Shown here in pieces: positions 3,914 through 45,138 of a stretch of DNA of 64,000 bases; the stretch's first letter is position 1, and each line of letters opens with the position of its first letter. Under the pieces are notes generated by a model. It was not told the origin of the DNA and ran no database searches. It saw nothing but the letters and a program-made list of their open reading frames with translations. Origin of the DNA: an uncultured Verrucomicrobiota bacterium (lineage in GTDB: Bacteria; Verrucomicrobiota; Verrucomicrobiia; Limisphaerales; UBA9464); assembly GCA_903821635.1 (NCBI GenBank), contig CAIJLV010000183.1, positions 97,542 to 161,541 on the forward strand. Reading direction: 5' to 3'. A program made the position numbers and the translations under genes.

Positions 3914-5326
3914 ATGACTTCCCGTTCCTTGGCCTTCGTCCTTCCGCTGGTGACCGCAGTGACCGCCCTCACGGCGCCGCCGCCCCGCCTCAAGGTCAGC
4001 GAAAACCATCGCTTCCTCGTCACTGCGTCCGGACAGCCGTTTTTCTGGCAGGGCGACACGGCGTGGGAATTGTTCCATCGCCTCAACCGGGAAGAAGCCG
4101 ACCTTTACCTGAAGAATCGCGCCCAACTTCGCTTCACCGTGGTGCAGGCCGTGGCCCTCGCTGAACTGGAGGGTCTGAACACGCCCAACGCCTACGGGCA
4201 CACGCCGCTCCTTGAGCACGATCCCACCCGGCCGAACGAGGCCTATTTCCAGCACGTCGATTGGATCGTGCAGCGGGCCAATGCGCTCGGGCTTTACGTC
4301 GGCTTCCTGCCTACTTGGGGCGACAAATGGAATCAGGCGTGGGGTGCTGGACCGGAGATTTTTACGCCTCAAAACGCCGAAGTTTACGGCGAATGGCTTG
4401 GGCAACGCTACCGGGACGCCGGGCTGATCTGGATTCTGGGCGGGGACCGGCCGCTTGATCAGGCCCGCGCCGACGGGCAACGGGCGATCACCCGCGCCTT
4501 GGCCCGCGGCCTGCGTCGCGGCGACGGCGGCGCGCACCTCATGACGTGGCATCCGACGGGAGGCAGTGGTTCCAGCCAGCACTTCCATGCCGATGACTGG
4601 CTCGACTTCAACATGCGACAAAACGGCCACACCGCCGAGTTCACCGGCCGCTATGACCAGACCCGGGTGGACTACGACCGCACGCCGGTGAAGCCGGTGC
4701 TCGATGGCGAACCCCTCTACGAGGATCACCCGGTTTCCTTCGACGCGAAGAAGTTCGGCCACTCCCTCGCCAGCGACGTGCGCCGACCGCTTTACTGGAA
4801 TCTCTTCGGGGGAGCCTTTGGCCACACTTACGGCCACCACTCCGTCTGGCAGATGTGGTCGCCCGGCAAGAATCCCATCAACCAACCGCTCCTGCCGTGG
4901 ACCGAAGCCATCAACCAGCCCGGCGCAGCGCAGATGCAGCACGCGCGCGCGCTGCTGGAGTCGCGGCCGTTTCTCAGCCGCATCCCGGATGATTCAATCC
5001 TCGTTCCCGATCGCGTGCCGACGAGTGTGCCCGGCACCGGCCGCTATCACTTTGCGGCGACCCGAGATGCCGCTGGCACCTACGCGTTCGTGTATGCGCC
5101 CGCCGGCCGAAGTTTTAAGGTGCGCCTGAATGTGATCCAAGGCTCCCGGGTAAAGGCGTGGTGGTTCAACCCGCGCGACGGCAAGGCCAGCGCCATCGGC
5201 ACGTTTGCCAGCCCCGGCGAGCGCGAATTCACTCCGCCGAATCCCGGCGAACTGCTCGATTGGGTGCTCGTGCTGGATGACGCGGCAAAGCGATATCCGG
5301 CGCCCGGCAGCCGGAAGTTGGATTGA
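3914..5326 (+). CDS. Secreted glycoside hydrolase, GH140-like (DUF4038 plus collagenase-like C-terminal domain)
   Basis: Signal peptide followed by [45 protein letters not shown]...PTWGDKW. C-terminal DWVLVLDD block. Confidence 0.75.
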
Positions 5327-5359
5327 CCTGCACCCGGAATTCTCATCCTGCTGCTGCGC

Positions 5360-5821
5360 ATGACCGCTGAGGAAACGTTGCAGCAACTCGGACTCACCCT
5401 GCCATCCGCGCCCGCCGCCGTGGCCGCCTACGAACCTTGGGTGCGGACCGGCAACTTGGTCTTCACCTCCGGCCAGCTTCCTTGGCGCGACGGCCGGATG
5501 GCCTTCACCGGCCAGCTCGGCGCCGAGTTGACCGTGGAGCAGGGCTACCAAGCCGCCCGGCAGTGCGCCCTCAACGTGCTGGCCCAGCTCAAGGCCGCCA
5601 CCGGTGACTTGGAAAAGGTCCGCCGGCTGGTCCGCGTCGAGGGCTACGTTCACTGCGCGCCGGGCTTCCGTGGCCATCCGCAGGTGCTCAACGGCGCCTC
5701 GGACCTCTTCAATGCCGTTCTCGGTTCCCGCGGCGCCCACGCCCGGCTGGCCGTCGGCATCAGCGACATGCCGCTCGACGCCGCAGTCCAGCTCACGGTC
5801 ACGGCGGAAGTCGCCGACTGA
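5360..5821 (+). CDS. RidA/YjgF family protein
   Basis: 153 aa; ...GNLVFTSGQLP...VRVEGYV...ARLAVGISDMPLDAAVQLTV is typical of the RidA fold. Confidence 0.85.
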   Translation: MTAEETLQQLGLTLPSAPAAVAAYEPWVRTGNLVFTSGQLPWRDGRMAFTGQLGAELTVEQGYQAARQCALNVLAQLKAATGDLEKVRRLVRVEGYVHCAPGFRGHPQVLNGASDLFNAVLGSRGAHARLAVGISDMPLDAAVQLTVTAEVAD

Positions 5822-18269: not shown

Positions 18270-19112
18270 ATGATTCGACTGTTTTCCCGCGCCGCCGTCC
18301 TGCTGTTCCTGGGACTCGACCTTGCCCGCCTAGTGGCGGCCGACACCAATGCGGTCTCGGTTTTCGCCGATCGCCGGTTGGAAGACGCCGTGCGCCAGCA
18401 GGTGTTCGCCAAGCGTAACACCAATTCTCCGCTGACCGCGGCCGATGTGGCCAACGTCTCCACCTTCAACGCCAACGGTCGGGGCATTACCAACCTCGCC
18501 GGCCTCGAACACTGCAAAGCCCTCGCTGCGGCCGACCTCGCGGGGAACCAGCTCACCGACCTGACCCCGCTGAAGGGGCTGCGGCAGTTGCAATACCTGA
18601 ACTTGGCCACCAACCAGATTCGCGACTTGGCACCGCTCGCCACCATTCCGGCGCTCCAATACGTCGAATTGTCCTGGAACCGAGTGACCGACCTCGCCCC
18701 ACTGACCGGCCTGACGAACCTCGCGTCCCTTTACCTCGGTCACAATCAGCTCAAGTCCCTCGCTCCCATTACCGGCCTGCCCAAACTGGTGTCCCTCTAC
18801 GCCGAGGACAACCGACTGACCAGTCTCGCCGGTTTAGAACGGTTGCGCACCGTGTCCGGCTTGTCCCTGTCCCGGAATCGCATCGCCGACGTGACGCCGC
18901 TCACGGGGTTGCGGGCGCCCAGCTTCATTTTCTTGGAACAAAACCGCATCAAGGACCTCAGGCCCTTGGCGGCGTGGCTCACCAACGACTTGGCCGGGCC
19001 GAAGAATTTCGCGCCCTTCGCCAACTTCCACCTCCAGGGCAACCGGCTTTCCGCCTCCTCCAAGCGGCTGGTTGCCGAATGGAAAAAGGCGGGCGTCCGC
19101 ATCAATCCCTGA
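18270..19112 (+). CDS. Secreted leucine-rich repeat (internalin-like LRR) protein
   Basis: At least 9 tandem 22-aa LRRs (L..L..L.L..N.I.DL.PL). Confidence 0.85.
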   Translation: MIRLFSRAAVLLFLGLDLARLVAADTNAVSVFADRRLEDAVRQQVFAKRNTNSPLTAADVANVSTFNANGRGITNLAGLEHCKALAAADLAGNQLTDLTPLKGLRQLQYLNLATNQIRDLAPLATIPALQYVELSWNRVTDLAPLTGLTNLASLYLGHNQLKSLAPITGLPKLVSLYAEDNRLTSLAGLERLRTVSGLSLSRNRIADVTPLTGLRAPSFIFLEQNRIKDLRPLAAWLTNDLAGPKNFAPFANFHLQGNRLSASSKRLVAEWKKAGVRINP

Positions 19113-19247: not shown

Positions 19248-19862
19248 ATGGGGCGGGTCAGTGATGCCAAAGCACGGTTGCTGGAAGCGGTCCGAGAGTT
19301 GATCTGGACCGGTTCCTACGGTCGCACCACGATCGACCAGATCTGCGAGAAGGCCGGCGTCAAAAAGGGCAGCTTCTACTACTTCTTCGAATCCAAGGCC
19401 GAGCTCGCCGAAGCCTCCCTCAACTTGGAAGTCGAACAAGCCCGACCGCTCTGGGACGGCATGTTTTCCCCGGCGGTGCCGCCGCTGGAACGGTTGGCGC
19501 GGATGTGCGACCGGATTTGCGAAGAACAGGCGGAAAAAAGGGCTCAATTTGGCAAAGTGCTCGGGTGTCCGCTATTCGCGTTGGGCGCCGAAGTGTGCAC
19601 CCAGGAGACCCGCCTGCGGGAGAAGATTCAGGAGATCTGCGAGCTCTGGCGGAAGTATCTGGAATCCGCCGTGCGGGATGCGGTTGCAGCCGGACTCATT
19701 GCCCCGGTGGACGCGCCGGCCACGGCTCAGGTGTTGTTCGCCTACAGCGAGGGCCTCATGACGCATGCCCGCATTCAGAACAGTCTGGACGGGCTCACCA
19801 CGATGTATGCCGGTTGCCTCCAGATTCTGGGAGTGAAACCCCCGGCGGCACCGACGGTGTGA
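19248..19862 (+). CDS. TetR/AcrR family transcriptional regulator
   Basis: N-terminal HTH: AKARLLEAVRELIWTGSYGRTTIDQICEKAGVKKGSFYYFFESK. Confidence 0.9.
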   Translation: MGRVSDAKARLLEAVRELIWTGSYGRTTIDQICEKAGVKKGSFYYFFESKAELAEASLNLEVEQARPLWDGMFSPAVPPLERLARMCDRICEEQAEKRAQFGKVLGCPLFALGAEVCTQETRLREKIQEICELWRKYLESAVRDAVAAGLIAPVDAPATAQVLFAYSEGLMTHARIQNSLDGLTTMYAGCLQILGVKPPAAPTV

Positions 19863-19878: not shown

Positions 19879-19896
19879 GTTGACTAGATGGATAAC
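19879..19896. promoter_or_regulatory. Imperfect 7-4-7 repeat GTTGACT-AGAT-GGATAAC; putative TetR operator O2
   Basis: Same architecture as O1, 11/14 arm positions identical, preceded by the same ATT. It lies between tetR and the efflux genes. Confidence 0.35.
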
Positions 19897-19915
19897 TACC
19901 CAAGCGGAAAGCGTA

Positions 19916-20196
19916 TGAACTGGAACCGAATCACTGGGCCGCGGCGCGGCCCCACCGCCGACCCGATTCAAACCCTGCGGCGGGCGCTCTTCCAACGCTA
20001 TGCCGGCGCGGTCGCCGCGGTGCGGCGCGAAGTGGGTCGCCTGTTGGCGGAGGCCGAGGCGGAGGCTCGGACCACGCCGTTTCCCGAGTTGATTTTCCCG
20101 CTGCTGGCGGAGGAGAAGCTGCTGGCCCTGTCCGCTGGGCGCGGGCGTCCGCTATGGCTCCGGCCCCAGTCAGAAGAAATCGCGTTTGGGGCCTGA
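19916..20196 (+). CDS. Small hypothetical protein (93 aa)
   Basis: Open frame between tetR and the adaptor gene. I prefer ATG at 19916 because the ATG at 19888 sits inside the O2 repeat. No family recognised. Confidence 0.35.
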
Positions 20197-20236: not shown

Positions 20237-21403
20237 ATGAACTGGAACCAAACTGTCTGGCCGTTGCTGCTCCTGAGCGTCTCGGCGTGGGGCTTGACCG
20301 GCTGCAATTCCCAATCCCCGCCGGCCGCCGCCGGATCGCCCCCGCCTCCCGCGGTCACGGTGGCTCCGGTCGAGGAGCGTGAATGGGTCGAGACCGAGGA
20401 ATTTGTCGGCCGCACGGAGGCGGTGGAACACGTCGAAATCCGGCCCCGGGTTTCCGGTTACCTGCAGGAAGTCCGCTTTCAATCCGGCCAGCGGGTGAAG
20501 CAGGGCGACGTGCTTTTCGTGATTGATCCCCGCACCCGCCAGGCGGCGTTGGCGCGGGCGGAGGCGGACGTGCTCCGGGCGCGCAGCACGCTGCAAAATG
20601 CGCAAGCCGAGGCGGCGCGAGTGGAGCGATTGCTCGGCACGAAGGCGATTTCCAAGGAAGAAGCCGACACCCGCCTTTGGAAGGTGGCGGACGCGCAATC
20701 GGTCCTGCTCTCTGCGGAGGCCGCCCGCGACTCCGCCCGGCTAGAGCTCGAATTCTGCGAGGTGAAATCACCGGTTAACGGCCAGGTAAGCCGGGCCCTG
20801 ATCACGCCGGGCAACAATGTCAGCGGCGTCGATGGCGCCACCAGCTTGCTGACGACGGTGGTGTCCTTGGACCCCGTTTACGTGCTGAGCGACGTGGCCG
20901 AGGCCACGATTCTGCGGTTTAAGCGCTTTACCCAAGCGGCCGGGCCCGCCACGAACGCATCGGCCCGGCTCGCGGTGCGGATGGCGTTGGCGGACGAGGT
21001 GGATTTTCCGCGCGCCGGCCACATTGAGTCGATGGATAACCGGCTGAACCCGGACACGGGCAGCCTCTTGGTGCGCTCGGTCTTTCCCAACCCGGATGGT
21101 CTGCTGCTGCCTGGCTTGTTTGTGCGGGTGAAAATCCCCGTCGGCCAACCGAGTCGGGCCTTATTCATCAATGACCGGGCCATCGGCACCGACCAGAGCC
21201 AGAAGTTTGTCCTCGTGCTGACCGCGTCTAACACCGTGGCTTATCGCCCGGTGAAACTCGGCCCGAGCAGCGGCGGCCAACGCGTCGTGCGCCAGGGCTT
21301 GCACGCGGGCGAGCAAGTGGTCGTCAACGGACTTCAACGGGTGCGTCCGGGCATGCCGGTGACGCCGGCGCCGGAGCCTCAGTTGACGGTGGCTCAGCCG
21401 TGA
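20237..21403 (+). CDS. Efflux RND periplasmic adaptor subunit (MFP/HlyD family), lipoprotein
   Basis: Lipobox LTGC, RVSGYLQEVRFQSGQRVKQGDVLFVIDP, coiled-coil hairpin and C-terminal beta-barrel blocks. Confidence 0.9.
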   Translation: MNWNQTVWPLLLLSVSAWGLTGCNSQSPPAAAGSPPPPAVTVAPVEEREWVETEEFVGRTEAVEHVEIRPRVSGYLQEVRFQSGQRVKQGDVLFVIDPRTRQAALARAEADVLRARSTLQNAQAEAARVERLLGTKAISKEEADTRLWKVADAQSVLLSAEAARDSARLELEFCEVKSPVNGQVSRALITPGNNVSGVDGATSLLTTVVSLDPVYVLSDVAEATILRFKRFTQAAGPATNASARLAVRMALADEVDFPRAGHIESMDNRLNPDTGSLLVRSVFPNPDGLLLPGLFVRVKIPVGQPSRALFINDRAIGTDQSQKFVLVLTASNTVAYRPVKLGPSSGGQRVVRQGLHAGEQVVVNGLQRVRPGMPVTPAPEPQLTVAQP

Positions 21404-21491
21404 ACCTGTCCCGGCCCGAGGGTCTGCGCACCGTCGGGCCGGCTTCCCTCAATCCTGATTCTGTCTCGTCTCCCCTGCGGCTGCCGTGCCC

Positions 21492-24400
21492 ATGAACTTT
21501 TCCCATTTTTTCATCCAACGCCCGATTTTCGCCGGCGTGCTGTCCATCGTGACGTTCCTCGTCGGCGCGCTGGCGATGTTTCGCCTGCCGATCAGTGAAT
21601 ACCCGGAGGTCGTGCCGCCCACCATTGTGGTCATGGCCGCGTATCCGGGTGCGAACCCCAAGACCATCGCCGAAACGGTCGCCGCGCCGCTCGAACAGGC
21701 CATCAATGGCGTCGAGAAGTCGCTCTACATGTTTTCTCAGGCGACGAGTGACGGGGTGATGACGCTGACGGTGACCTTTCAGCTCGGCGCCAACATCGAC
21801 GACGCCCAAGTCCAAGTGCAGAACCGGGTGGCCCAAGCGCTGCCCAAATTGCCCGAGGAAGTCCGCCGCCTCGGGGTCACCACGACGAAGCAATCACCCG
21901 ACCTGACGATGGTGGTGCACCTCACTTCACCGGGCGGGCGCTACGACGAAATCTACCTCCGCAACTACGCCTCGCTCCAGGTGAAGGACGTGTTGGCCCG
22001 CATTCCCGGTGCGGGTTCGGTGCAGCTTTTCGGTTCCGGCGATTACGCCATGCGCGTGTGGCTCGATCCCGACAAGGCCGCCGCGCGGGGACTGACCGCG
22101 AGTGAAATTGTGGCCGCCATCCGGGAGCAAAACGTGCAGGTCGCCGCCGGGGGCATCGGCCAGCAGCCGGTAAGCCGCCGCGTGGACACCGAACTGCTCA
22201 TTAACGCCAAGGGGCGCCTGCTCGACGTGGAGGAGTTTGGCAACATCATCGTCAAGACCGGGGCCCACGGCGAACGCACCCGGCTGAAGGATCTGGCGCG
22301 CTTGGAATTGGGTGCGTCCGGTTATGCCCTGCGCGCCCAGCTCAACAACCAATCGGCGGTCGCCATTCCCATTTTTCAAGCGCCCGGCGCAAACGCACTC
22401 CAGCTCTCCAGCGACGTGCGCAAGGCGATGGAGGAGTTGAAGCAGACCTTCCCGGACGGCGTGGAGTATTCCGTCGTCTATGACCCGACGGTGTTCGTGC
22501 GCGATTCCATCAAGGCCGTCGTCGTCACGTTGTTCGAAGCCATCGTGCTGGTGGTGATCGTGGTCATCCTCTTCCTCCAGACTTGGCGGGCCTCGATCAT
22601 TCCGCTGGCCGCCGTGCCGGTGTCGTTGGTGGGCACTTTTGCGGTCATGCTCGCGCTCGGGTTCAGCATCAACAACCTCACCCTCTTCGGCCTCGTGCTG
22701 GCGATCGGTATCGTGGTGGATGACGCCATCGTCGTGGTGGAAAACGTGGAACGAAACATCGCGCTCGGCCGGTCTCCGATCGAGGCGACGAAACGGGCGA
22801 TGGCGGAAGTCACCGGCCCAATCATCGCGATCGCCCTCGTGCTGTGTGCGGTGTTTGTCCCGACGGCGTTCATCACCGGCTTGACCGGTCAGTTCTACAA
22901 GCAGTTCGCCATCACCATCGCGATCTCGACCGTCATCTCGGCCTTCAATTCGCTGACGCTTTCACCTGCCCTCTGCGCCGTGCTGCTCCAGGGCCATCAC
23001 GAACCCAAGGACGGCTTGTCGCGGTTCATGAACCGGGCTTTGGGTTGGTTGTTCCGCCCGTTCAACCGCTTCTTTGAATGGTCCGGCCAAAAGTATGGCG
23101 CGAGCGTCGGGGGTATCCTCCGCAAAAGCTCCATCGTCCTCGTGCTCTACGCCGGCCTCGTCGGGCTGACCGGCTGGAGTTTCCTGAAGGTGCCCACCGG
23201 CTTTGTGCCGACGCAGGACAAACAATACCTGGTCGCCTTTGCGCAATTGCCCGACGCGGCCTCCCTCGACCGCTCCGACGCGGTGCTCAAGCGGATGACG
23301 GAACTCGCGCTCAAAGTGCCCGGCGTCCAGGACTCCATCGCCTTTCCCGGCCTCAGCATCAGCGGTTTCAGCGTCGCCCCGAATGCCGGCATCGTCTTTG
23401 TCGGCCTCCAGCCCTTCCACGAACGCCGGTCGAAGGAGTTGAGCGGCCCGGCGATTGCGGCGCGGTTGAACCAGGAATTCACCGCCATCCAAGACGCCTT
23501 CGTCCTCGCGGTGATGCCGCCCGCAGTGAACGGCATGGGCACGGTCGGCGGCTTCAAACTCTACGTCGAAGACCGCGCCGGGCTCGGTTACGACACGCTC
23601 TACCAAAACACCCAGGCGCTCGTGGGCCAGAGCTACCAGACGCCTGGGCTCGCCGGCGTCTTCTCCGGCTTCACGGTCAACGTGCCCCAGCTCGACGCGG
23701 AGATCGACCGCGAGAAGGCCAAGGCGCAGGGCGTGCCGCTGCAAAATCTCTTCGAGACGATGCAGGTGTATCTCGGCTCCCTCTACGTGAATGACTTCAA
23801 CCTCTTCGGCCGCACCTACCAAGTCGTCGCCCAAGCGGATGCCCCCTTCCGCGATGAACCCGCCGACCTCACTCGGCTCAAGACCCGCAACGCCCGGGGC
23901 GAAATGGTCCCACTCGGCACCCTGATTAAGGTGCAGGAATCCTACGGCCCTGACCGCGCCATGCGTTACAACGGCTATCCCGCCGCCGAGATCATGGGCA
24001 ATCCCGCCCCCGGGTTCAGCTCTGGGCAGGCGGAAAACGCCATGGCCCGGCTGGTCGCGGCAAACCTGCCCAAGGGCATGGCCTTCGAGTGGACCGACCT
24101 GACCTATCAGCGGATTCTCTCCGGCAATTCGGCGATCTTCATCTACCCGCTGTGCCTGCTCCTCGTGTTCCTTGTGCTCGCGGCGCAATACGAGAGCTTC
24201 CGCCTGCCGCTGGCCATCATCCTAGTCGTCCCACTGTGCCTGCTCTTCGCCATCGCCGGGGTTTACCTGAGCAAGGGCGACAACAACATCTTCACCCAGA
24301 TCGGCCTGATTGTGCTCATCGGTCTGGCCTGCAAGAACGCGATCCTGATCGTCGAATTTGCCAAAGCCCGGCAGGACGAAGGCGCGTCCGCCTTTGACGC

Positions 24401-26126
24401 CGCCGTCGAAGCCTGCCGGCTGCGGTTGCGCCCGATCCTGATGACTTCGATCGCGTTCATCGCCGGGGTCTTCCCGCTCGTCATCGCCCACGGCGCCGGG
24501 GCTGAAATGCGCCAAGCCATGGGCGTGGCCGTCTTTGCCGGCATGATCGGGGTGACGCTCTTCGGCCTCCTCCTGACCCCCGTGTTCTACGTGGTGCTCA
24601 TGAAATCATGGCGCCCGAAGCCGGCTCCCACTACGCCGGCGGCGGGCCTGAAAGCCGGCCCCGGAACCCTCGTCGCCGGCGCGATCCTCCTCGGCGGACT
24701 CGGCCTCCTCCTGACGCCGGCGGCGCAGGCCGGCCCGCTCACCGTCGGCCCGGATTACGTCCGGCCGACCAACACCCCGCCCGCCCACTACAAGGCCACC
24801 GAACTCGGCGCTTGGAAGGAAGGGCGGCCGCTCGACACGCAGTCGAAGGGCGCTTGGTGGACCGTCTTTGGCGACGCCCCGCTGGACGAACTCGAACAGC
24901 AGGCGGGCGTCGCGAACCAAGCCCTCAAGGCAGCACTGGCCCGGGTGGAACAAGCCCGGGCCACCGCCCGCGTCAGCCGCAGCGAATTTATGCCGAGCCT
25001 CGACTTCAACCCGAGCGGCCGGCGCGAACGCTACTCGCCGAACCAAGTGCCGGCCTTCGGCAACATGACCGCTAACACCCTGCGGGTGCCGTTGGACCTG
25101 AGCTACGAAATCGATCTTTGGGGTCGGGTTCGCCGCGGGTTCGAGGGCGCGCGGGCCGACGCCCAAGCCTCGCTGGCGGCGTTCCACAGCGGGCTGCTCA
25201 CGTTGCAGGCCGACCTCGCGCAAAATTACTTCCGCCTGCGGGCCTTGGATGCCGAGCTGGCGGCCGTGGCGGGCACGCTGCGCTTCCGGCGCGAGCAGGT
25301 GGACTTGGTGCGCAGCCGGCTCGAAGGCGGCATCGGCAACGAACTCGACGTCGCCCGAGCCACGACCGAACTCGCGACCGCCGAAGCCGATGCCGCCGGG
25401 CTCGAACGGAACCGTGCCGAACTGGAAAACGCCTTGGCCATCCTCGTCGGGGCTAATCCGGCGACGTTCAGGCTGGCGGCGTTGGCCGCCCCGGGGCCGA
25501 ACTGGAATCCCACCCCGCCGAGCGTGCCGGCCGGCTTGCCCGCCGACCTGCTGGAGCGGCGGCCCGACGTGGCGGAGGCGGAACGGCAGCTCGCGGCGGC
25601 CAACGCCCGCATCGGTTTGGCCAAGGCAGCGTTTTTCCCCGTGGTCCGCCTCACGGGTTCGGCGGGTTACCTCAGCGGGGACATCGATAGCCTGTTCAAT
25701 TGGGACAGTCGCGTGTGGTCCGTCGGCCCGAGCGTTTCCCTGCCGATCTTCGCCGTAGCTCGCAATCAGGCGAAACTCCGGCGCAGCCGGGCGGAATTCG
25801 AGGAATCGGTAGCCAACTACCGGCAGCGCGTGCTGGTCGCCTTTGGAGAAGTAGAGACCAGTCTCGCCAGCCTGCATTTCCTGGCCCGGCAGGCCGAGGC
25901 GCAGGCGCGGGCCTTGGCGGGCGCTCGCCAAGCTTCGGAGTTGGCGGACGAGCGTTACCGCGCCGGCCTCGTCAATTACCACGAGGTCGTGGACGCCAAC
26001 CGCATCGCCTTCCAAGTCGAGCGCGGCACCGCCCAACTCGCGGGCCAGCGGCTGCTGGCCACGGTGCAACTGGTGAAGGCGCTCGGCGGCGGTTGGCACG
26101 AGCAGACGCTCGCCCCCGGGCGGTGA
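21492..26126 (+). CDS. RND efflux permease (HAE1/AcrB-type, about 1036 aa) fused in frame to a NodT-type outer-membrane factor (about 508 aa)
   Basis: MNFSHFFIQRPIFAGV... through ...LLLTPVFYVVL is a full 12-TM AcrB-like module. It continues without a stop into MKSWRPK...LLTPAAQAGPLTVGPDY... and a full OMF (two TolC-like repeats) ending ...QLVKALGGGW. Confidence 0.85.
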   Translation: MNFSHFFIQRPIFAGVLSIVTFLVGALAMFRLPISEYPEVVPPTIVVMAAYPGANPKTIAETVAAPLEQAINGVEKSLYMFSQATSDGVMTLTVTFQLGANIDDAQVQVQNRVAQALPKLPEEVRRLGVTTTKQSPDLTMVVHLTSPGGRYDEIYLRNYASLQVKDVLARIPGAGSVQLFGSGDYAMRVWLDPDKAAARGLTASEIVAAIREQNVQVAAGGIGQQPVSRRVDTELLINAKGRLLDVEEFGNIIVKTGAHGERTRLKDLARLELGASGYALRAQLNNQSAVAIPIFQAPGANALQLSSDVRKAMEELKQTFPDGVEYSVVYDPTVFVRDSIKAVVVTLFEAIVLVVIVVILFLQTWRASIIPLAAVPVSLVGTFAVMLALGFSINNLTLFGLVLAIGIVVDDAIVVVENVERNIALGRSPIEATKRAMAEVTGPIIAIALVLCAVFVPTAFITGLTGQFYKQFAITIAISTVISAFNSLTLSPALCAVLLQGHHEPKDGLSRFMNRALGWLFRPFNRFFEWSGQKYGASVGGILRKSSIVLVLYAGLVGLTGWSFLKVPTGFVPTQDKQYLVAFAQLPDAASLDRSDAVLKRMTELALKVPGVQDSIAFPGLSISGFSVAPNAGIVFVGLQPFHERRSKELSGPAIAARLNQEFTAIQDAFVLAVMPPAVNGMGTVGGFKLYVEDRAGLGYDTLYQNTQALVGQSYQTPGLAGVFSGFTVNVPQLDAEIDREKAKAQGVPLQNLFETMQVYLGSLYVNDFNLFGRTYQVVAQADAPFRDEPADLTRLKTRNARGEMVPLGTLIKVQESYGPDRAMRYNGYPAAEIMGNPAPGFSSGQAENAMARLVAANLPKGMAFEWTDLTYQRILSGNSAIFIYPLCLLLVFLVLAAQYESFRLPLAIILVVPLCLLFAIAGVYLSKGDNNIFTQIGLIVLIGLACKNAILIVEFAKARQDEGASAFDAAVEACRLRLRPILMTSIAFIAGVFPLVIAHGAGAEMRQAMGVAVFAGMIGVTLFGLLLTPVFYVVLMKSWRPKPAPTTPAAGLKAGPGTLVAGAILLGGLGLLLTPAAQAGPLTVGPDYVRPTNTPPAHYKATELGAWKEGRPLDTQSKGAWWTVFGDAPLDELEQQAGVANQALKAALARVEQARATARVSRSEFMPSLDFNPSGRRERYSPNQVPAFGNMTANTLRVPLDLSYEIDLWGRVRRGFEGARADAQASLAAFHSGLLTLQADLAQNYFRLRALDAELAAVAGTLRFRREQVDLVRSRLEGGIGNELDVARATTELATAEADAAGLERNRAELENALAILVGANPATFRLAALAAPGPNWNPTPPSVPAGLPADLLERRPDVAEAERQLAAANARIGLAKAAFFPVVRLTGSAGYLSGDIDSLFNWDSRVWSVGPSVSLPIFAVARNQAKLRRSRAEFEESVANYRQRVLVAFGEVETSLASLHFLARQAEAQARALAGARQASELADERYRAGLVNYHEVVDANRIAFQVERGTAQLAGQRLLATVQLVKALGGGWHEQTLAPGR

Positions 26127-26145: not shown

Positions 26146-27033
26146 TTACTTGTGCAAGTCGGATACGCCGCGGGGGAGATTCCGCAGGGCGTTGACCTCG
26201 CGCAGGGTCAGCGCCCCGTCAAAGACCGCGAGGTCGTCCAGCCAGCCGGTGTAGTTGAAGCCCAGCATCATGAGCGCTTCGTCGGGCTTCCAGGTCCACG
26301 TCTGTTCGCGCGGGCTGAGTTCGCCTTTCAGGCCGCCGTCGAGGTAGAGCCGGGCGACGCCGTCGGCCTTGCCCGTGTTGAACTTTTCCCAAGTGAACAC
26401 GACGTGCGTCCAGCGATCGCGGGAGAACGGCGGATTCCACACGGGCACCAGCGGTTTTTCCGCCATCGGAATGTCCTCCCATTTCCGGTTGTCGGGATTC
26501 CAGACCGGGAAATCGGCGTAGGCGCCGAGGCGGAATTCGCGGGGTTTTTCGTCTTTGGTAAATTCGGTGAAGAAGGCCGCGTTGTTCCAATCCTTGGATG
26601 TGATCTGGATCGGGTCGCAGAAGCCGGGTTCCAGGTCTTCGTCCGGATTCAGCCGGAGCCAGAAGGAGACGGAGCCACTCCAATTCCGGTCGTTATACGG
26701 CAGGTTGCCGGCGGCTTTGAAGGCGACGAGTTCCTTGATCCGCCGGTCGAACCGCAGCGCGCTGCCATACCGGCCCTGCTGGAAGGCGAGGCTCACCGAG
26801 GCGGGCGGCAGGCCGGGCTGCATGACCCGCGGATGGCTCCATTGCGGGGCCCAGTGGAGGCGCTTGTCCCCCTTGGCAAACCGGGCATCCGCCGAGTCGT
26901 CAAACGGGGCGTGGAACCGGAGCGAAAGCCCGAGGGTGCGCCGGGCGGCGTAAGGCACGGGATCGCTGGCCACCGCGGTCACGGTGCTGGCGACCAAGAG
27001 GGCACAGAGCAGGGAGGTGGAGGGGGAATTCAT
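26146..27033 (-). CDS. Secreted LamG/concanavalin-A-like lectin domain protein
   Basis: Signal peptide and C-terminal LDDLAVFDGALTLREV, a typical LamG-fold ending. Confidence 0.65.
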   Translation of the reverse strand: MNSPSTSLLCALLVASTVTAVASDPVPYAARRTLGLSLRFHAPFDDSADARFAKGDKRLHWAPQWSHPRVMQPGLPPASVSLAFQQGRYGSALRFDRRIKELVAFKAAGNLPYNDRNWSGSVSFWLRLNPDEDLEPGFCDPIQITSKDWNNAAFFTEFTKDEKPREFRLGAYADFPVWNPDNRKWEDIPMAEKPLVPVWNPPFSRDRWTHVVFTWEKFNTGKADGVARLYLDGGLKGELSPREQTWTWKPDEALMMLGFNYTGWLDDLAVFDGALTLREVNALRNLPRGVSDLHK

Positions 27034-27050
27034 GGCGGTTGGGGCTGACG

Positions 27051-28121
27051 TTAGGGGAGGAGGTCGGATTCGGAAAACACGGCCTGTTGGACCACCGTGC
27101 GTTCGTGCGACGTGAACATGACGTGGATCTTGCCGTCCCGCGTCTGGATCGCCGTCGGGTAACCGTAGTCTCCCTTGGACTCCGCGATCAGATCACGCCG
27201 GTGGGGAAACGTCTTCGCACCATCGGTCGAAAGTGCCACCGATAAGGGCGTGCGATCCGAGAAACTACGGTTGTAAACCAATAGGTGGTGGCCGCTTTGC
27301 AAACGCAGGAAGTCCACGGCGGCATTCGGATTCGGGAATTCGGAATCTTGGCCCGGGCTCCACGTCTTGCCGGCGTCGCGCGATTCGGTGCGCACCAGCC
27401 AGCCATCGGGTTGGCCGTCGTAATTGCCCCCGCGGCGGCAGAATGCGACCAAGTGGTCACCGGCAATCCAAGCCGGGGCTGGCTGAATGTTGCCCAAGCG
27501 GGAGCGGACCCGGTTGGATTCGGTCCATTGGCCGGTCGCCGGGTGGTAGCGGAGGAAGTAGGACGTGCAGTCCGGGCCGACGGATTCGGGATCGTTGCCG
27601 ACCTCGTGATAGACCGGGAGCAGGTAGTCGCCGTCCGGCAGGACGAGGGGCCGGTTCCGGACCATCGTGCCGGCTTCAAACGTGAGCTGAAACGGCTCCG
27701 ACCACGTCCGGGCGCCGTCGCGGGAGATCTTCGCGGTGATGCGTGAACTGTCCCACAGCTCCCCGTAGCGGGTGACGTAGAAGAGCCAGACGACCCCGTC
27801 CGGCGCCTGCCACGGAATGGCGTTGCCGAGCGCGTAAAACGGGTTGGCGGCGATCTTGACCGGTTTGGACCACCGTTTGGAGCCGCGCTTTTGCCGCGCC
27901 CCAAACACCGCGGCGGCGTTGTCCTTGTATTCGCCGTGCCCGCTGAAAAAGGCGACGAAGAGATCGCCATTGGCCAATTCCGTGAGGCTGGCGGGGTGTT
28001 TGTAATCGCCGGTCGGAATCTCGGGTCCGAACAAGCGCTCCAAGCGCAGGCTGTCCGCCACGACGGGGGCGAGGGTGACCCACCACAGGAAGGCCAGCGT
28101 GAGCCAGCGCAGGGATTTCAT
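27051..28121 (-). CDS. Exo-alpha-sialidase / BNR-repeat glycosyl hydrolase
   Basis: Three Asp-box motifs (SRDGARTWS, SRDAGKTWS, STDGAKTF). Signal peptide from ATG at 28121. Confidence 0.8.
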   Translation of the reverse strand: MKSLRWLTLAFLWWVTLAPVVADSLRLERLFGPEIPTGDYKHPASLTELANGDLFVAFFSGHGEYKDNAAAVFGARQKRGSKRWSKPVKIAANPFYALGNAIPWQAPDGVVWLFYVTRYGELWDSSRITAKISRDGARTWSEPFQLTFEAGTMVRNRPLVLPDGDYLLPVYHEVGNDPESVGPDCTSYFLRYHPATGQWTESNRVRSRLGNIQPAPAWIAGDHLVAFCRRGGNYDGQPDGWLVRTESRDAGKTWSPGQDSEFPNPNAAVDFLRLQSGHHLLVYNRSFSDRTPLSVALSTDGAKTFPHRRDLIAESKGDYGYPTAIQTRDGKIHVMFTSHERTVVQQAVFSESDLLP

Positions 28122-28191
28122 GGGGCGAGCGTAACCAGAACCCTCCGGTTGAAAAGACACCATCCGCCCCGCGGCGGTGCCGGGTCGCCGA

Positions 28192-28422
28192 CTACGGGCC
28201 CACTTCCGGGCGGTCGAGGTGCGGGCCGGAGTCGAGTTCGTCAAAGCCCTCGAAATCACCGGGGCGAAGTTCGCGGCTGATCTTGTGCTCCTCGCCAAAC
28301 CACTGGCCGAGGTCGATGAGCCGGCAGCGGGGGCTGCAAAAGGGGCCCGTGGGGGTCGCCAACCACGCGCCGCGTTCGCGGCAGCGGGGGCACTTGACCA
28401 GCAGGGTGGTGAGCTCGCTCAT
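28192..28422 (-). CDS. yacG: DNA gyrase inhibitor YacG (zinc-binding)
   Basis: CPRC...PFCSPRCRLIDLGQW is the YacG signature. Confidence 0.8.
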   Translation of the reverse strand: MSELTTLLVKCPRCRERGAWLATPTGPFCSPRCRLIDLGQWFGEEHKISRELRPGDFEGFDELDSGPHLDRPEVGP

Positions 28423-41670: not shown

Positions 41671-44600
41671 TCAGAAGTTCAGCCGGATGCTGGCGACGAA
41701 GGTGCGTTCGCGGGGGAGCGGTGTGAGGAGATTGAGTGGATTCAGCCGGTAGTCCTCGTCGGCCAAGTTGAGGATGCCCACCCGGAGTTCGGCCGCCCGG
41801 CGGGTGAAGCGGTAGCCGGCGAACACGTTGTGCTGCCAGAATTCGTCGCCGAGTCGGGCCGGCGCATAACCGCCGTTGGCCTGCTGGAACCAGTCGCTTT
41901 CCCACTGCGCAAAGAAGCCGCTGGCGTGATTGAAGCGCGCGAAGAGCCCGACCTGGTGCAGCGTGGCGGCCTCGTTTTGTTCCAGCGCCGCGAGCCCGTT
42001 CGCGCCGGCGGGCAAGCCGGGGAAGCGGCCGGTCAATTCGGCTTCGCTGACGCGGTAACGCGCGCCCACCGACCAGTCGTCCCCGAGCAACTGGGTCGCG
42101 TAGAGGCCGACGGAACGTTCCTGGAAGGCGAGCGTCTGGGTCGCGAAATCCACCGTGTCGGCCAGCGGCACGGGCAGCGAATTGGACACCGCGCCAACCT
42201 CGCGGGTGCCGTCGGACCGCAGTTGTTCGACCTCGACTCCAAAGTAGGTGCCGGCGCCGAAGGATTGGTCGAGGCCGACGCCGAGGGTCTCGAACTCGGT
42301 TCCCGGCACGAGGCCGGCGACACCCTCGGGAATCAGGCTGCGCAACGCCTGGTTGAAGCCGGCGACCTGCGCCGGTTCGAGCCGGACGCTTTGGTCGAAG
42401 TAGAGGCCGCCGAGAGAACGGGTCCACGCGGCGCGCAGGTGGGTGTGTTCCAGCGGCGACCAGGTGAAGCCCAGTTTCGGGGCCACGAGGTCGCGGTCGG
42501 TCTCGCCAGCGGACACCGGCGCCACGTCGGCGTTGCGGGGGAAATCGAGCCGGTCGTAGCTGAGGCCGGCGGTGAGCCGGAGCGCCTTCACCGGACGCCA
42601 ATGGTGATAGACATAGCCGTTAAGGCGCGCGAAGCCGGGTTCGATCTGCTGCTCGGCGAGCGCCGGCGGCAGCGGGTTTTCGAGGCGGGCCGCGGTCGCG
42701 ACCGTGCCGTCCTGGAAACGTCCGCCCAGCACCCACGCGTGGTGCTCCGTCTCGAAGATCTGCTGCAACTCGGCGGAATAGAGCGTGAAGTCGCTGGCGA
42801 GCACCAACGGCCGACGGACGCTACCGAAGTCCACGTCGGTCACCGTGCCGACCGGGTTGCGGCGGAGGAACAGCAAGGCGTGATCGGCGTCGGTGAGCGT
42901 GAAGTCATCCGTGAGGCGCGAGGCGAGGAACAGCGTGTGGCTGCCGGGCGCCCATTCGTGGTGCCAGCCGAGGTAGAGCGACGGTTCCTGGCGTTCGGTC
43001 ACGCGGAATGTCGGGCTCGCGGTCGCGGGATCGTAGTAAGCCGCCGTGTCGCCGGCGTCGGAATCCATCCAGCCCGCTTGCACGTAAAGGCTGTCGGCGT
43101 CGCCGAACTGCTGCTTGGCCTGGGCCGAAAATTCCAGGCGCTCGAAGTCGCCGTTCGGGTGGTCGCCATTCTGCGTGCGGAACTGCGAATCCAGCGCGTA
43201 GCCGAGCCCGTCCACCTGGCCGAAGACTGAGGCCGCGGAATCCCAGTCGCCGCCGCTGCGGTATTCGGCGTAACCGCTGGCGGCCACCGGCGCGGGACCA
43301 AACCAGCGGAGGCGGTCCTGCTGGGAGAGCTGCTGCGACAAGTTCCCGGCGCCCGGCGGCGCGAGTAGGTTGGCGACGAGCAGTTCGCTCTGGCGCGCGG
43401 CCTCGTGGCGGAGGTTCACGCCGGTGGGATCTTCCTGCCGTTGCAGGCTGCGGGCGCGGAACAGGTGCGCGGAGAAGTTCGCGTAGTCGTCGGCCAAGGC
43501 CCGGGCGGCGGTGCGCTCGGCGACCTCGGTCAGGCCCACAGCCTCGTAGGCGACAGCCAGGTTGGCGCTGCGGACCGCGCGGTCTTGGTCGAGCAACTGG
43601 CGCGCGCGGAAGACGCTGCGGCGGTCGTTCAGCGCGACCGACTGTTCGAGGTCGTGGACGGCTTCGTTGAAACGATTGAACTGGGCGTAATGCAGCCCCT
43701 CATAGAGCCACGGCGTGGGGTCACCGCCATCGAGGCTCTTCGCTAGGCGGAAGTCCTTCTCGGCCCGCAATGCGTCGCCGGATTCGCTCCAGCCCTTGGC
43801 GAGTTGGTTGCGGAACGCCGCGCGCTGCGGTTCCATGGCAGCGGCCAGTTGCAGCGCCTGCCGAGCTTCTTCCGGACGGCCGAGTTCGCCGAGCGTGAGA
43901 GCGCGGCCGAGCCAGGCGTTCCCCAACGCTCCATCGAGCGCGAGCGCCTGATCGAAGTCGGCGAGGGCGGCGGCGAAGTTGCGTTGCCGTAGGTGGAGGA
44001 AACCGCGGACCGAATGGGCGGCCGGATACCGCGGTGCCGCCGCGATCGCCCGGTCAACGGCGAGCTGGGCGGAACGACGGTCATCAAAGGCGAGGTCGAG
44101 TTCCGCGACGCGGGTCCACGCGAAGCCGGATTCACCCGCGCGCCGGGCGGCGTTGCGGGCGCCCGGCAGGTCGGAGCGTGATTGGAGATAGTAGGAGCGG
44201 GCCAGCCAACCGGTTCGGGAAACGGGTTCCGGCAGTTCGGCGACGGCTTGGAACTTCACCGCGGCGATCACTTCGCGGAATGCCCGGGCCATTTCGGAAT
44301 CCGGGGCCAAGGCGCCGAGTTGCGTCTCGGCGGTCTCCACGTCGCCGCTGGCCAGCCGCACCGCGAGACGAAATTCGCGGACGGCTGCGGACTCAGCCGC
44401 GGCCGGTCCGGGCAGTGCGGCCAAGGCGGCGTTCACGTCGCCGTCCCGGTAGGCGGCGAGGGCTTTGGAAAACGTCGCCTGTTCGGCGGCTGTGAGGGTG
44501 AGGTCCGCCGGGTCGAGCACGGCCGGATAATTGAGGCACCACTGCACCCGGTTAGCGGCGAGCACGGTGCGCGATTTGGCGATGGTGCGGTCCGGCGTGA

Positions 44601-45138
44601 CGACCGCCTGTTCGCCAGCGACGAGTTCGGCGGTGCCTTGCGTCGTGGTCAGGGTTACGGCGCCGTCGAGCAGCGCGAGTTCGGTGAGACCGCTGTCGCC
44701 TTCGGCGCGCAGGACAAACTCAGTTCCCCGGATCGCGCCCGTGGCGAGCGGCGTCTCGAACTCGATGTCGGACGGCCGTTCACGGTTGAGGAAAAACAGG
44801 CGGCCGGAGTTCAGCCGGAACTTCTTCTGCGCGGGTGCCTGGCTGGGTGGCTGGAGCTGGAGCAGCGAGGACTTGTCGATGCGGATGACGCTGCGGTCGG
44901 AGAGTTGCAACGTGGCCCGGGCCGCGCTGCCGGTGCGCAGGCGGTCGCCGGCTTGCAGGACGAGGTTGGTCTGCGCCGGCTGCCATTGCTCGGCGCCGGC
45001 GCGCAGGATTTCCACCGGCCCGCTGAACTCGACGATCCGGCTGAGGAACGCTTCCGCGGCTCGGCCCGGCGCGAGCAACCAGAGGGTGCCTAGGAGACAG
45101 GCCCAGGATCGGCGGAGCAGGTGGCGGCGTGCGTTCAA
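41671..45138 (-). CDS. Secreted FecR-domain / TPR / C-terminal beta-barrel protein (1155 aa)
   Basis: Signal peptide, a FecR-like N-terminal beta domain, about 8 TPR-like helical repeats (aa about 300-560), then about 550 aa with a beta-strand pattern ending in ...TFVASIRLNF (OMP-type C-terminal Phe). Confidence 0.75.
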   Translation of the reverse strand: MNARRHLLRRSWACLLGTLWLLAPGRAAEAFLSRIVEFSGPVEILRAGAEQWQPAQTNLVLQAGDRLRTGSAARATLQLSDRSVIRIDKSSLLQLQPPSQAPAQKKFRLNSGRLFFLNRERPSDIEFETPLATGAIRGTEFVLRAEGDSGLTELALLDGAVTLTTTQGTAELVAGEQAVVTPDRTIAKSRTVLAANRVQWCLNYPAVLDPADLTLTAAEQATFSKALAAYRDGDVNAALAALPGPAAAESAAVREFRLAVRLASGDVETAETQLGALAPDSEMARAFREVIAAVKFQAVAELPEPVSRTGWLARSYYLQSRSDLPGARNAARRAGESGFAWTRVAELDLAFDDRRSAQLAVDRAIAAAPRYPAAHSVRGFLHLRQRNFAAALADFDQALALDGALGNAWLGRALTLGELGRPEEARQALQLAAAMEPQRAAFRNQLAKGWSESGDALRAEKDFRLAKSLDGGDPTPWLYEGLHYAQFNRFNEAVHDLEQSVALNDRRSVFRARQLLDQDRAVRSANLAVAYEAVGLTEVAERTAARALADDYANFSAHLFRARSLQRQEDPTGVNLRHEAARQSELLVANLLAPPGAGNLSQQLSQQDRLRWFGPAPVAASGYAEYRSGGDWDSAASVFGQVDGLGYALDSQFRTQNGDHPNGDFERLEFSAQAKQQFGDADSLYVQAGWMDSDAGDTAAYYDPATASPTFRVTERQEPSLYLGWHHEWAPGSHTLFLASRLTDDFTLTDADHALLFLRRNPVGTVTDVDFGSVRRPLVLASDFTLYSAELQQIFETEHHAWVLGGRFQDGTVATAARLENPLPPALAEQQIEPGFARLNGYVYHHWRPVKALRLTAGLSYDRLDFPRNADVAPVSAGETDRDLVAPKLGFTWSPLEHTHLRAAWTRSLGGLYFDQSVRLEPAQVAGFNQALRSLIPEGVAGLVPGTEFETLGVGLDQSFGAGTYFGVEVEQLRSDGTREVGAVSNSLPVPLADTVDFATQTLAFQERSVGLYATQLLGDDWSVGARYRVSEAELTGRFPGLPAGANGLAALEQNEAATLHQVGLFARFNHASGFFAQWESDWFQQANGGYAPARLGDEFWQHNVFAGYRFTRRAAELRVGILNLADEDYRLNPLNLLTPLPRERTFVASIRLNF

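Follow-up and report, generated by a model that had tools for sequence, protein, structure and literature searches.

An OqxB-like RND permease and a NodT-type outer-membrane factor encoded in one reading frame in an uncultured Verrucomicrobiota bacterium, with a predicted internal cleavage signal between them

Every characterised tripartite efflux pump of the resistance-nodulation-division (RND) type has, to our knowledge, been described as three separate polypeptides, a permease, a periplasmic adaptor (membrane fusion protein, MFP) and an outer-membrane factor (OMF); the supply of the OMF and its matching to the pump are usually treated as a matter of separate genes. Here we describe a pump locus in a stretch of 64,000 nucleotides from an uncultured Verrucomicrobiota bacterium (contig CAIJLV010000183.1, positions 97,542 to 161,541; hereafter the window). 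It shares with the canonical operons (OqxAB, MexAB-OprM, AcrAB-TolC) the three components, the order regulator-adaptor-permease-OMF, an OqxB-like permease with intact proton-relay motifs and an OprM-like OMF. In contrast to these operons, permease and OMF lie in one frame, without a stop codon, a spacer or an OMF start codon, and the signal of the OMF is internal. The initial annotation of this DNA had taken permease and OMF to be always separate polypeptides, which holds for the characterised systems only, as the databases contain many fusions of this kind.

Natural fusions in the RND world include SecDF of Thermus thermophilus and MacB with its fused nucleotide-binding domain (PMC8277102, 2021 Chem Rev). 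As in the window, subunits that are separate in some organisms form one polypeptide in others (PMC8277102). The parts joined in those fusions share one membrane and are uncleaved, whereas for the window a cleavage is predicted. The searched portion of this review (PMC8277102) mentions no permease-OMF fusion. A full-text literature search likewise returned no paper in which permease and OMF are naturally fused or a lipobox is internal. The closest mechanistic precedent appears to be FbcH of Bradyrhizobium japonicum, reportedly a cytochrome b-c1 polyprotein that is cleaved at an internal signal peptide. Like the gene in the window, FbcH is said to combine, in the same open reading frame (ORF), a polytopic inner-membrane protein with cytoplasmic C-terminus, an internal signal and a periplasmically exposed partner. 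The two products of FbcH are reportedly separated at the signal-peptidase site, whereas in the window the cleavage is predicted. The proteins are unrelated, and the FbcH partner reportedly stays anchored in the inner membrane while the OMF of the window must reach the outer membrane; in many lineages with a fused gene, moreover, the released partner would be lipidated at an internal lipobox. Polyprotein processing is familiar in viruses and rare in bacteria, and we are not aware that any polytopic membrane protein has been reported to undergo lipoprotein maturation at an internal site; the literature search turned up none.

The gene runs in a single frame on the forward strand from ATG 21492 to TGA 26124-26126 (21492..26126), and its 1544 codons are translated without an internal stop. 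The ORF listing gives one ORF from a GTG at 21486 to 26126 (1546 aa), and so the open frame joining permease and OMF that the initial annotation had described is real. Its reading of the junction also matches exactly: the translation is ...GVTLFGLLLTPVFYVVL-MKSWRPKPAPTTPAAGLKAGPGTLVAGAILLGGLGLLLTPAAQA-GPLTVGPDYVRP..., with ctc ATG aaa at 24597-24605. The permease module comprises aa 1-1036 (21492..24599) and extends to the end of the twelfth transmembrane helix (TM12, ...TPVFYVVL). Pfam ACR_tran matches aa 3-1036 over model positions 1-1020 of 1021, NCBIfam RND_permease_1 (NF000282) matches aa 4-1037 with 1445 bits against a cut-off of 1250, and TIGR00915 scores 1180 bits against a cut-off of 940. 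The OqxB equivalog model NF000037, an "exception" model, gives 1415 bits, below its 2200-bit cut-off; by these profile scores the permease classes as an OqxB-like HAE1 RND protein and not as OqxB itself. The motifs GIVVDDAIVVVEN, GLACKNAILIVEFA and RLRLRPILMTS (TM4, TM10, TM11) are intact in the translation, and we take them to be equivalent to the proton-relay residues D407/D408, K940, R971 and T978 of AcrB. The TM10-TM12 region aligns with the OqxB structures, and the PDB alignment reaches the end of TM12. An HAE1 polypeptide ends in the cytoplasm soon after this helix, whereas here 508 further codons follow in frame.

These codons include a complete OMF of the NodT type. TIGR01845 (outer_NodT) matches aa 1084-1534 with 387 bits, its cut-off being 210, and the match covers model positions 11-460 of 460; Pfam OEP matches in two stretches, corresponding to the two OEP repeats. 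The best PDB match is OprM (1wp1, E = 1.6e-62), the top matches being OprM, OprJ, CusC and OprN, and residues 4-7 of OprM (IPDY) align with GPDY of the OMF module. The predicted mature OMF has 464 aa (24732..26123) and begins GPLTVGPDYVRP. It differs from NodT and OprM in missing the typical lipoprotein Cys, which is the first mature residue of these proteins: the window has AQA/G at this place (the slash marks the predicted cut) and no Cys near the junction. An AlphaFold2 monomer model of the OMF part has a mean pLDDT of 65, with values below 50 in the signal region, and shows the long helices expected for an OMF protomer. Both modules are thus complete and look functional, and the near end-to-end profile matches bear out the earlier description of a full-length permease followed by a full-length NodT-type OMF.

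Could a sequencing or assembly error, or a decaying pseudogene, have removed the stop between two ordinary genes? The source organism is uncultured and the depth in public runs is low (about 3-5x), both of which would make such an error easier to imagine. The initial annotation had asked for independent sequence across the junction, and the metagenome contigs are identical there, with no stop or frameshift. Logan contigs lying on 24300-24900 show 0 differences and 0 gaps; they stem from four runs, three on lake water in one study and one on groundwater in a second study. The junction itself is crossed by contigs of three independent runs, with both studies represented, and single contigs spanning the junction region cover 24300-24669, 24358-24900 and 24533-24900. 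In a homologue search of 5.8 billion proteins, from which the best 120 clusters were taken, all of these clusters were fused (1535-1610 aa, 99-100% query coverage, 73-81% identity). Their sources are JGI, ENA, NCBI and Logan; those that bear a name come from metagenome-assembled genomes (MAGs) of Verrucomicrobia or Pedosphaera. The GTDB species representatives L001-L003 of Verrucomicrobia subdivision 3 have the same fused frame. A comparison with related Verrucomicrobiota loci, which had also been proposed, thus gave a divided answer: the best 120 clusters and L001-L003 are fused, but L004, L007 and L008 have a stop between the modules. One long-read MAG (L006, about 4858-5700) is fused at the junction and has its RND frame broken upstream; this break inside the RND module could be counted in favour of an artefact, and is probably an assembly indel error rather than a sign of a pseudogene. 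Because the independent contigs are identical at the junction and the fused frame is kept in at least 120 clusters, we reject an assembly error; the fusion is genuine and far beyond chance. The fused frame is also kept in a closed Kiritimatiellota chromosome and both modules score as full-length, and we give an artefactual loss of the stop practically no credence.

The junction was analysed in a set of 121 sequences, consisting of the window and 120 homologues. After TM12 (TPVFYVxL) there follow a Met, a basic tail, a Pro/Ala/Gly/Ser-rich linker, a Leu-rich hydrophobic core and then an ending of either of two kinds. Between TM12 and GPDY the segment measures 42 to 63 residues, and the frame is always kept. 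In the window, the basic cytoplasmic tail with the linker (MKSWRPKPAPTTPAAGLKAGPG) occupies 24600..24665. The net charge of the tail is +2 to +6 in 119 of the 121 sequences, and it aligns with the tail RKLVTRRKPV of OqxB in the PDB alignment. It is homologous to the C-terminal tail of stand-alone RND proteins and would act as the n-region of an internal signal. The hydrophobic h-region (TLVAGAILLGGLGLLL, 24666..24713), the "13th TM", has a best 15-residue Kyte-Doolittle mean of 2.49 in the window (1.65-2.89 across the set). It is Leu-rich at positions -8 to -12; its residues vary otherwise, the sequence being poorly conserved, unlike that of TM12. The AlphaFold2 model has a short, low-confidence helix here. 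The c-region TPAAQA (24714..24731) would be cut between A1080 (24729-24731) and G1081 (24732-24734).

A signal-peptidase-I-type ending of this kind is found in 105 of the 121 sequences. For scoring, 104 of them were used, as P0113, with a stray Cys in its h-region, was counted with the lipobox group. Position -4 is S or P (entropy 1.47 bit), position -3 is A in 72, V in 10, T in 8, S in 7, L in 5 and G in 2 (1.56 bit), and position -2 is free (Q, K, R, H, S and others; 2.99 bit). Positions -1 and +1 are nearly fixed, with A and G, respectively, each in 99 of the 104 sequences (0.37 bit each). This profile corresponds to the classical (-3,-1) signature expected of signal peptidase I. The junction segment of the window, with its motif A-Q-A/G, has the features of a Sec signal, namely a basic n-region, a hydrophobic h-region in the usual range of about 10-16 residues and a c-region in which -3 and -1 are small. 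It departs from a Sec signal in its position, which is not at the N-terminus of the translated polypeptide: it starts at ORF residue 1037 and would be N-terminal only with a translation start at ATG 24600. The export-signal anatomy proposed initially (basic n-region, hydrophobic h-region, A-x-A and no lipobox Cys) is therefore reflected in a pattern that is conserved among the homologues. The other ending, present in 16 of the 121, is a lipobox [LVSF][TAS]GC at the homologous place. Its Cys lies 2-3 residues before GPDY in most of the 16, as is usual in OprM (C-S-L-IPDY), and 8 residues before it in three. P0001 and P0018 are close relatives with the Cys form and the window has the AxA form; the site has thus switched its cleavage chemistry within the clade, yet stayed a cleavage motif.

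The same design recurs in distant lineages. The last 1000 residues served as query for an exhaustive HMMER search; among its best 150 cluster representatives at 50% identity there were 15 fused proteins of 1372-1541 aa with 30-52% identity to the query. A PROSITE-type lipobox stands 23-40 residues after TM12 in 13 of these 15, and the same pattern gives only 9 matches elsewhere in the 22,332 residues of the 15 proteins; another, P0233, has a signal-peptidase-I-like ending. The named ones belong to Bryobacteraceae/Acidobacteriota and to Kiritimatiellota bacterium B12222 (WFB35000.1, on a 4.43-Mb chromosome). A fused locus of a Planctomycetota MAG (L030), which was found separately, also carries a lipobox. 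An adaptor (MFP) gene precedes the fused gene in L001, L030, L081, L082 and L083, and L001 and the Kiritimatiellota chromosome L081 share with the window the order TetR-MFP-fusion. When the C-terminal halves of the permeases are placed in a neighbour-joining tree, fused proteins are scattered among unfused ones, a pattern that speaks for fusion on several independent occasions or else for repeated fission. We consider it rather probable that RND-OMF polyproteins are a recurrent and so far undescribed arrangement in at least four phyla (Verrucomicrobiota, Planctomycetota, Kiritimatiellota and Acidobacteriota), in which the OMF would leave the cytoplasm like a third periplasmic domain belonging to the permease. 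Its release would fall to signal peptidase I or, in the majority of lineages, to Lgt and signal peptidase II at the internal lipobox, and the permease would keep a 13th helix.

The unfused relatives indicate from which parts such a junction is made. The RND protein of L004 is 76-78% identical to that of the window, as close as that of the fused L001; it includes a scaffold gap (10 N). At about 5857-6030 of L004, the RND tail ends ...VFYVVLMRMGFKKKERAPSVGGAAPAQI (AAPAQI) and is followed by TAA, the 5-nt spacer GGACT and ATG, with an AAGGA resembling a Shine-Dalgarno (SD) sequence lying across stop and spacer. The OMF of L004 then begins ATG-KKRGFFEAK... and has an ordinary N-terminal signal, MKKRGFFEAKLGMLVGCVAAVAAIAPFTAAG/SPKVGPDY. 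L004 represents either the ancestral state or a secondary fission beside the fused clade. In L008 the RND protein ends ...FYVLMMKIGLKKKPTAKTDSTASA and a stop, and the unfused RND tails MKIGLKKKPTAKTDSTASA (L008) and MRMGFKKKERAPSVGGAAPAQI (L004), each ending at a stop codon, are the counterparts of the tail in the window. The OMF precursors of L007 (Prosthecobacter; MRFLLPFLLAATSAVAQ/LGPDY, that is ...SAVAQ/LGPDY) and of L008 (MRFLIFLTFIATSASAQ/IGPDF) are of the signal-peptidase-I type. OMFs of this group thus often use Cys-less signal-peptidase-I signals. The stand-alone OMFs of Verrucomicrobia (L005, L007, L008, L027 and L038) resemble the OMF of the window in belonging to the same OMF group, with 49-65% identity (four measured), in the start (x)GPDY and in a cleavage motif without Cys. 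They differ from it by their own start codon, a short N-terminal n-region, and a stop codon and spacer after the upstream transporter. By this comparison the fused junction corresponds to the RND tail, h-region and c-region of such a gene pair, from which stop, spacer, SD sequence, start codon and short n-region have dropped out. In another Verrucomicrobia MAG (L005, 3071-7434), an OMF 65% identical to that of the window stands alone after an adaptor and a major facilitator superfamily (MFS) transporter and has its own signal-peptidase-I-type signal (...LVLGQPLAQG/GALTIGPDY); the same OMF lineage, when unfused, thus serves an MFS pump.

We propose, with a probability of about 0.7, that the gene in the window encodes a precursor polyprotein of a tripartite RND pump, in which the "TM13" is an internal signal peptide that is cut at AQA/G to free the OMF. 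From the known structures of AcrB and OqxB, the C-terminus of an RND permease is cytoplasmic. With the topology taken from these structures, the sequence has the features of an FbcH-type protein: a polytopic module with cytoplasmic C-terminus, an in-frame n-h-c signal and an exported module. The 12-TM permease would insert co-translationally, and its basic C-terminal tail would stay in the cytoplasm according to the positive-inside rule. The hydrophobic segment aa 1059-1074 would then enter the Sec translocon in the N-in/C-out orientation of a signal peptide, and the 464-residue OMF would be exported the way the two large periplasmic loops of the permease are. Signal peptidase I would cut after A-Q-A (aa 1078-1080), and the freed, non-lipidated OMF would go to the outer membrane and trimerise, while tail and h-region would stay on the permease as an appendage at its C-terminus, if no later trimming removes them. 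The adaptor would be supplied from its own upstream gene (20237-21403). In fused homologues of the lipobox type, Lgt and signal peptidase II would carry out the cleavage step and yield a lipidated OMF. The data show that the fusion is real, conserved and recurrent and that its motifs are conserved; from these we infer that the h-region directs export, that the precursor is cut, which enzyme cuts it and what becomes of the helix. Two kinds of peptide would tell the cleaved from the uncleaved form, namely the semi-tryptic GPLTVGPDYVRPTNTPPAHYK and a peptide spanning ...TPAAQAGPLTVGPDYVR.

The initial annotation had also proposed that the signal-like helix acts as a 13th TM exporting the OMF, which is then either cleaved or tethered. 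The comparative data favour export followed by cleavage, because the (-3,-1) signature is conserved, a lipobox Cys occupies the same place in relatives and the same design is found in independent lineages. The tethered variant, in which the h-region is a permanent 13th TM and the OMF stays covalently on the permease and spans to the outer membrane, finds no such support. The continuous frame and an h-region hydrophobic enough for the membrane would fit it, and the cleavage against which it is set is itself a motif prediction. Mature OprM is anchored in the outer membrane by Cys1, and the alpha-barrel of an OMF alone is about 100 Angstrom long. Between the predicted mature N-terminus, where the c-region ends, and GPDY, which corresponds to OprM residues 4-7, there are only 5 residues, too few to connect an inner-membrane helix with an OprM-like anchor point in the outer membrane. 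A tether would need neither an invariant A at -1, a small residue at -3, nor a lipobox Cys in other lineages, and the poor conservation of the h-region compared with TM12 is likewise not what a permanent helix would lead us to expect. We regard an uncleaved tether as very unlikely.

Cleavage of a polyprotein would be unnecessary if the OMF were made mainly or only as a separate precursor, MKSWRPKP...AQA/G, by internal initiation at ATG 24600, the fusion then being a by-product. Translation from this codon would give a plausible n-h-c signal, long but normal, and a Met follows TM12 directly in 119 of the 121 close homologues, although the neighbouring tail residues vary. In the PDB alignment, VFYVVL-MKSWRPKPA lies on VFYVTL-RKLVTRRKPV of OqxB, with the Met opposite an Arg. 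As the Met aligns with the OqxB tail and is found also in the unfused RND proteins of L004 and L008, it is a residue of the permease's cytoplasmic tail, which weakens its value as proof of an internal start and leaves the earlier suggestion that it starts the OMF unsupported. No SD-like motif precedes ATG 24600 in the window, nor the corresponding position in L001-L003; this is weak evidence and uninformative alone, since the MFP and RND starts in the window are also without an obvious one. The fused junctions (TAC GTG GTG CTC ATG and synonymous variants) have none, whereas the unfused L004 has its AAGGA before the OMF start. At the L030 junction a CTG (in CTG CGC) takes the place of the ATG, and past TM12 a GTG within the h-region is the one start-type codon in frame; past TM12 in L082 there are just two TTG of this type, likewise within the h-region. 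Neither locus therefore has a start codon that would give a full signal peptide, while in L083 one TTG could yield a plausible precursor. In seven of the 15 distant fusions the stretch from TM12 to the cleavage motif is without a Met. Without a stop every ribosome on the permease runs into the OMF, and the fusion polypeptide is made anyway; for the frame to stay open over at least 120 diverged clusters and in many independent lineages, the fusion must be under selection. A start at ATG 24600 may serve as an extra route, and it does not explain the open frame; as the main source of the OMF we hold it to be unlikely.

The sequence ATGA at 24600-24603 had been compared to a stop/start overlap. 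Its out-of-frame TGA is real, but it is an automatic by-product of Met-Lys (ATG AAR), and a relic of an overlap is not supported, since unfused RND genes end 19-28 codons later and their OMF genes start further downstream. The ATGA could in principle serve recoding, in that a +1 shift at ctc-ATG-A onto the TGA would end the permease and the OMF would be made separately. Besides being automatic from Met-Lys, the TGA is absent in L030 (CTG CGC), no slippery motif or downstream structure suggests a shift, and the conserved cleavage motifs would be left unexplained. We reject the ATGA both as an overlap relic and as a recoding site, and consider such a frameshift scarcely credible.

Several points speak against the polyprotein reading that we prefer. 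The cleavage, the enzyme and the exact site are motif predictions, and that signal peptidases accept a signal behind a 12-TM protein in this family is likewise our extrapolation. One of the 15 distant fusions, P0168, has no recognisable cleavage motif. The Met kept in 119 of the 121 sequences would also be compatible with a conserved internal start. As the neighbour-joining tree is rough, it leaves the number of independent fusions uncertain, and no RNA run containing the stretch and no proteome data for the organism were found.

A one-gene precursor of permease and channel fixes a 1:1 synthesis of two subunits that are each trimeric in the assembled pump, and the fusion would carry an outer-membrane protein to the translocon on the nascent chain of the permease. 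If the proposed processing is true, a site inside a polypeptide, behind twelve TM helices, is handled by the general signal peptidases and in most lineages by the lipoprotein pathway. The system would also offer a clean test, since a single point mutation at -1, at -3 or at the lipobox Cys should turn two proteins into one. The fusions call for caution in annotation as well. The double architecture is recognised automatically at JGI, where such proteins are named "HAE1 family protein/NodT family...", and the OMF is hidden at NCBI because the label there, "RND transporter permease subunit", covers the permease only.

The operon is headed by a gene for a TetR-family regulator (19248..19862, forward strand; Pfam TetR_N, TetR_C_13). 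The periplasmic adaptor is encoded by its own gene (20237..21403, forward strand; Pfam HlyD_D23, Biotin_lipoyl_2) and carries its own lipoprotein signal (MNWNQTVWPLLLLSVSAWGLTG/C), with the lipobox LTGC visible in the sequence. Between these two genes lies a putative gene of 102 aa without a Pfam match (19888-20196, forward strand). The locus is chromosomal, with neighbours that include PEP carboxykinase, PurL, pyruvate phosphate dikinase and a molybdopterin oxidoreductase, and no signs of mobile DNA adjoin the operon. Genes unrelated to the pump flank it on both sides, a leucine-rich-repeat protein upstream (18270-19112) and, directly downstream of the fusion on the reverse strand (26146-28298), a Laminin_G_3 (concanavalin-like) protein and a BNR-repeat (sialidase-like) protein. 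Elsewhere in the window, a 1154-aa ORF on the reverse strand (41671-45138) joins a FecR domain (aa 64-160), TPR (aa 352-437) and a TonB-dependent-receptor beta-barrel (aa 719-1124), and represents another unusual-looking union, in one frame, of a sensor-type domain and an outer-membrane barrel.

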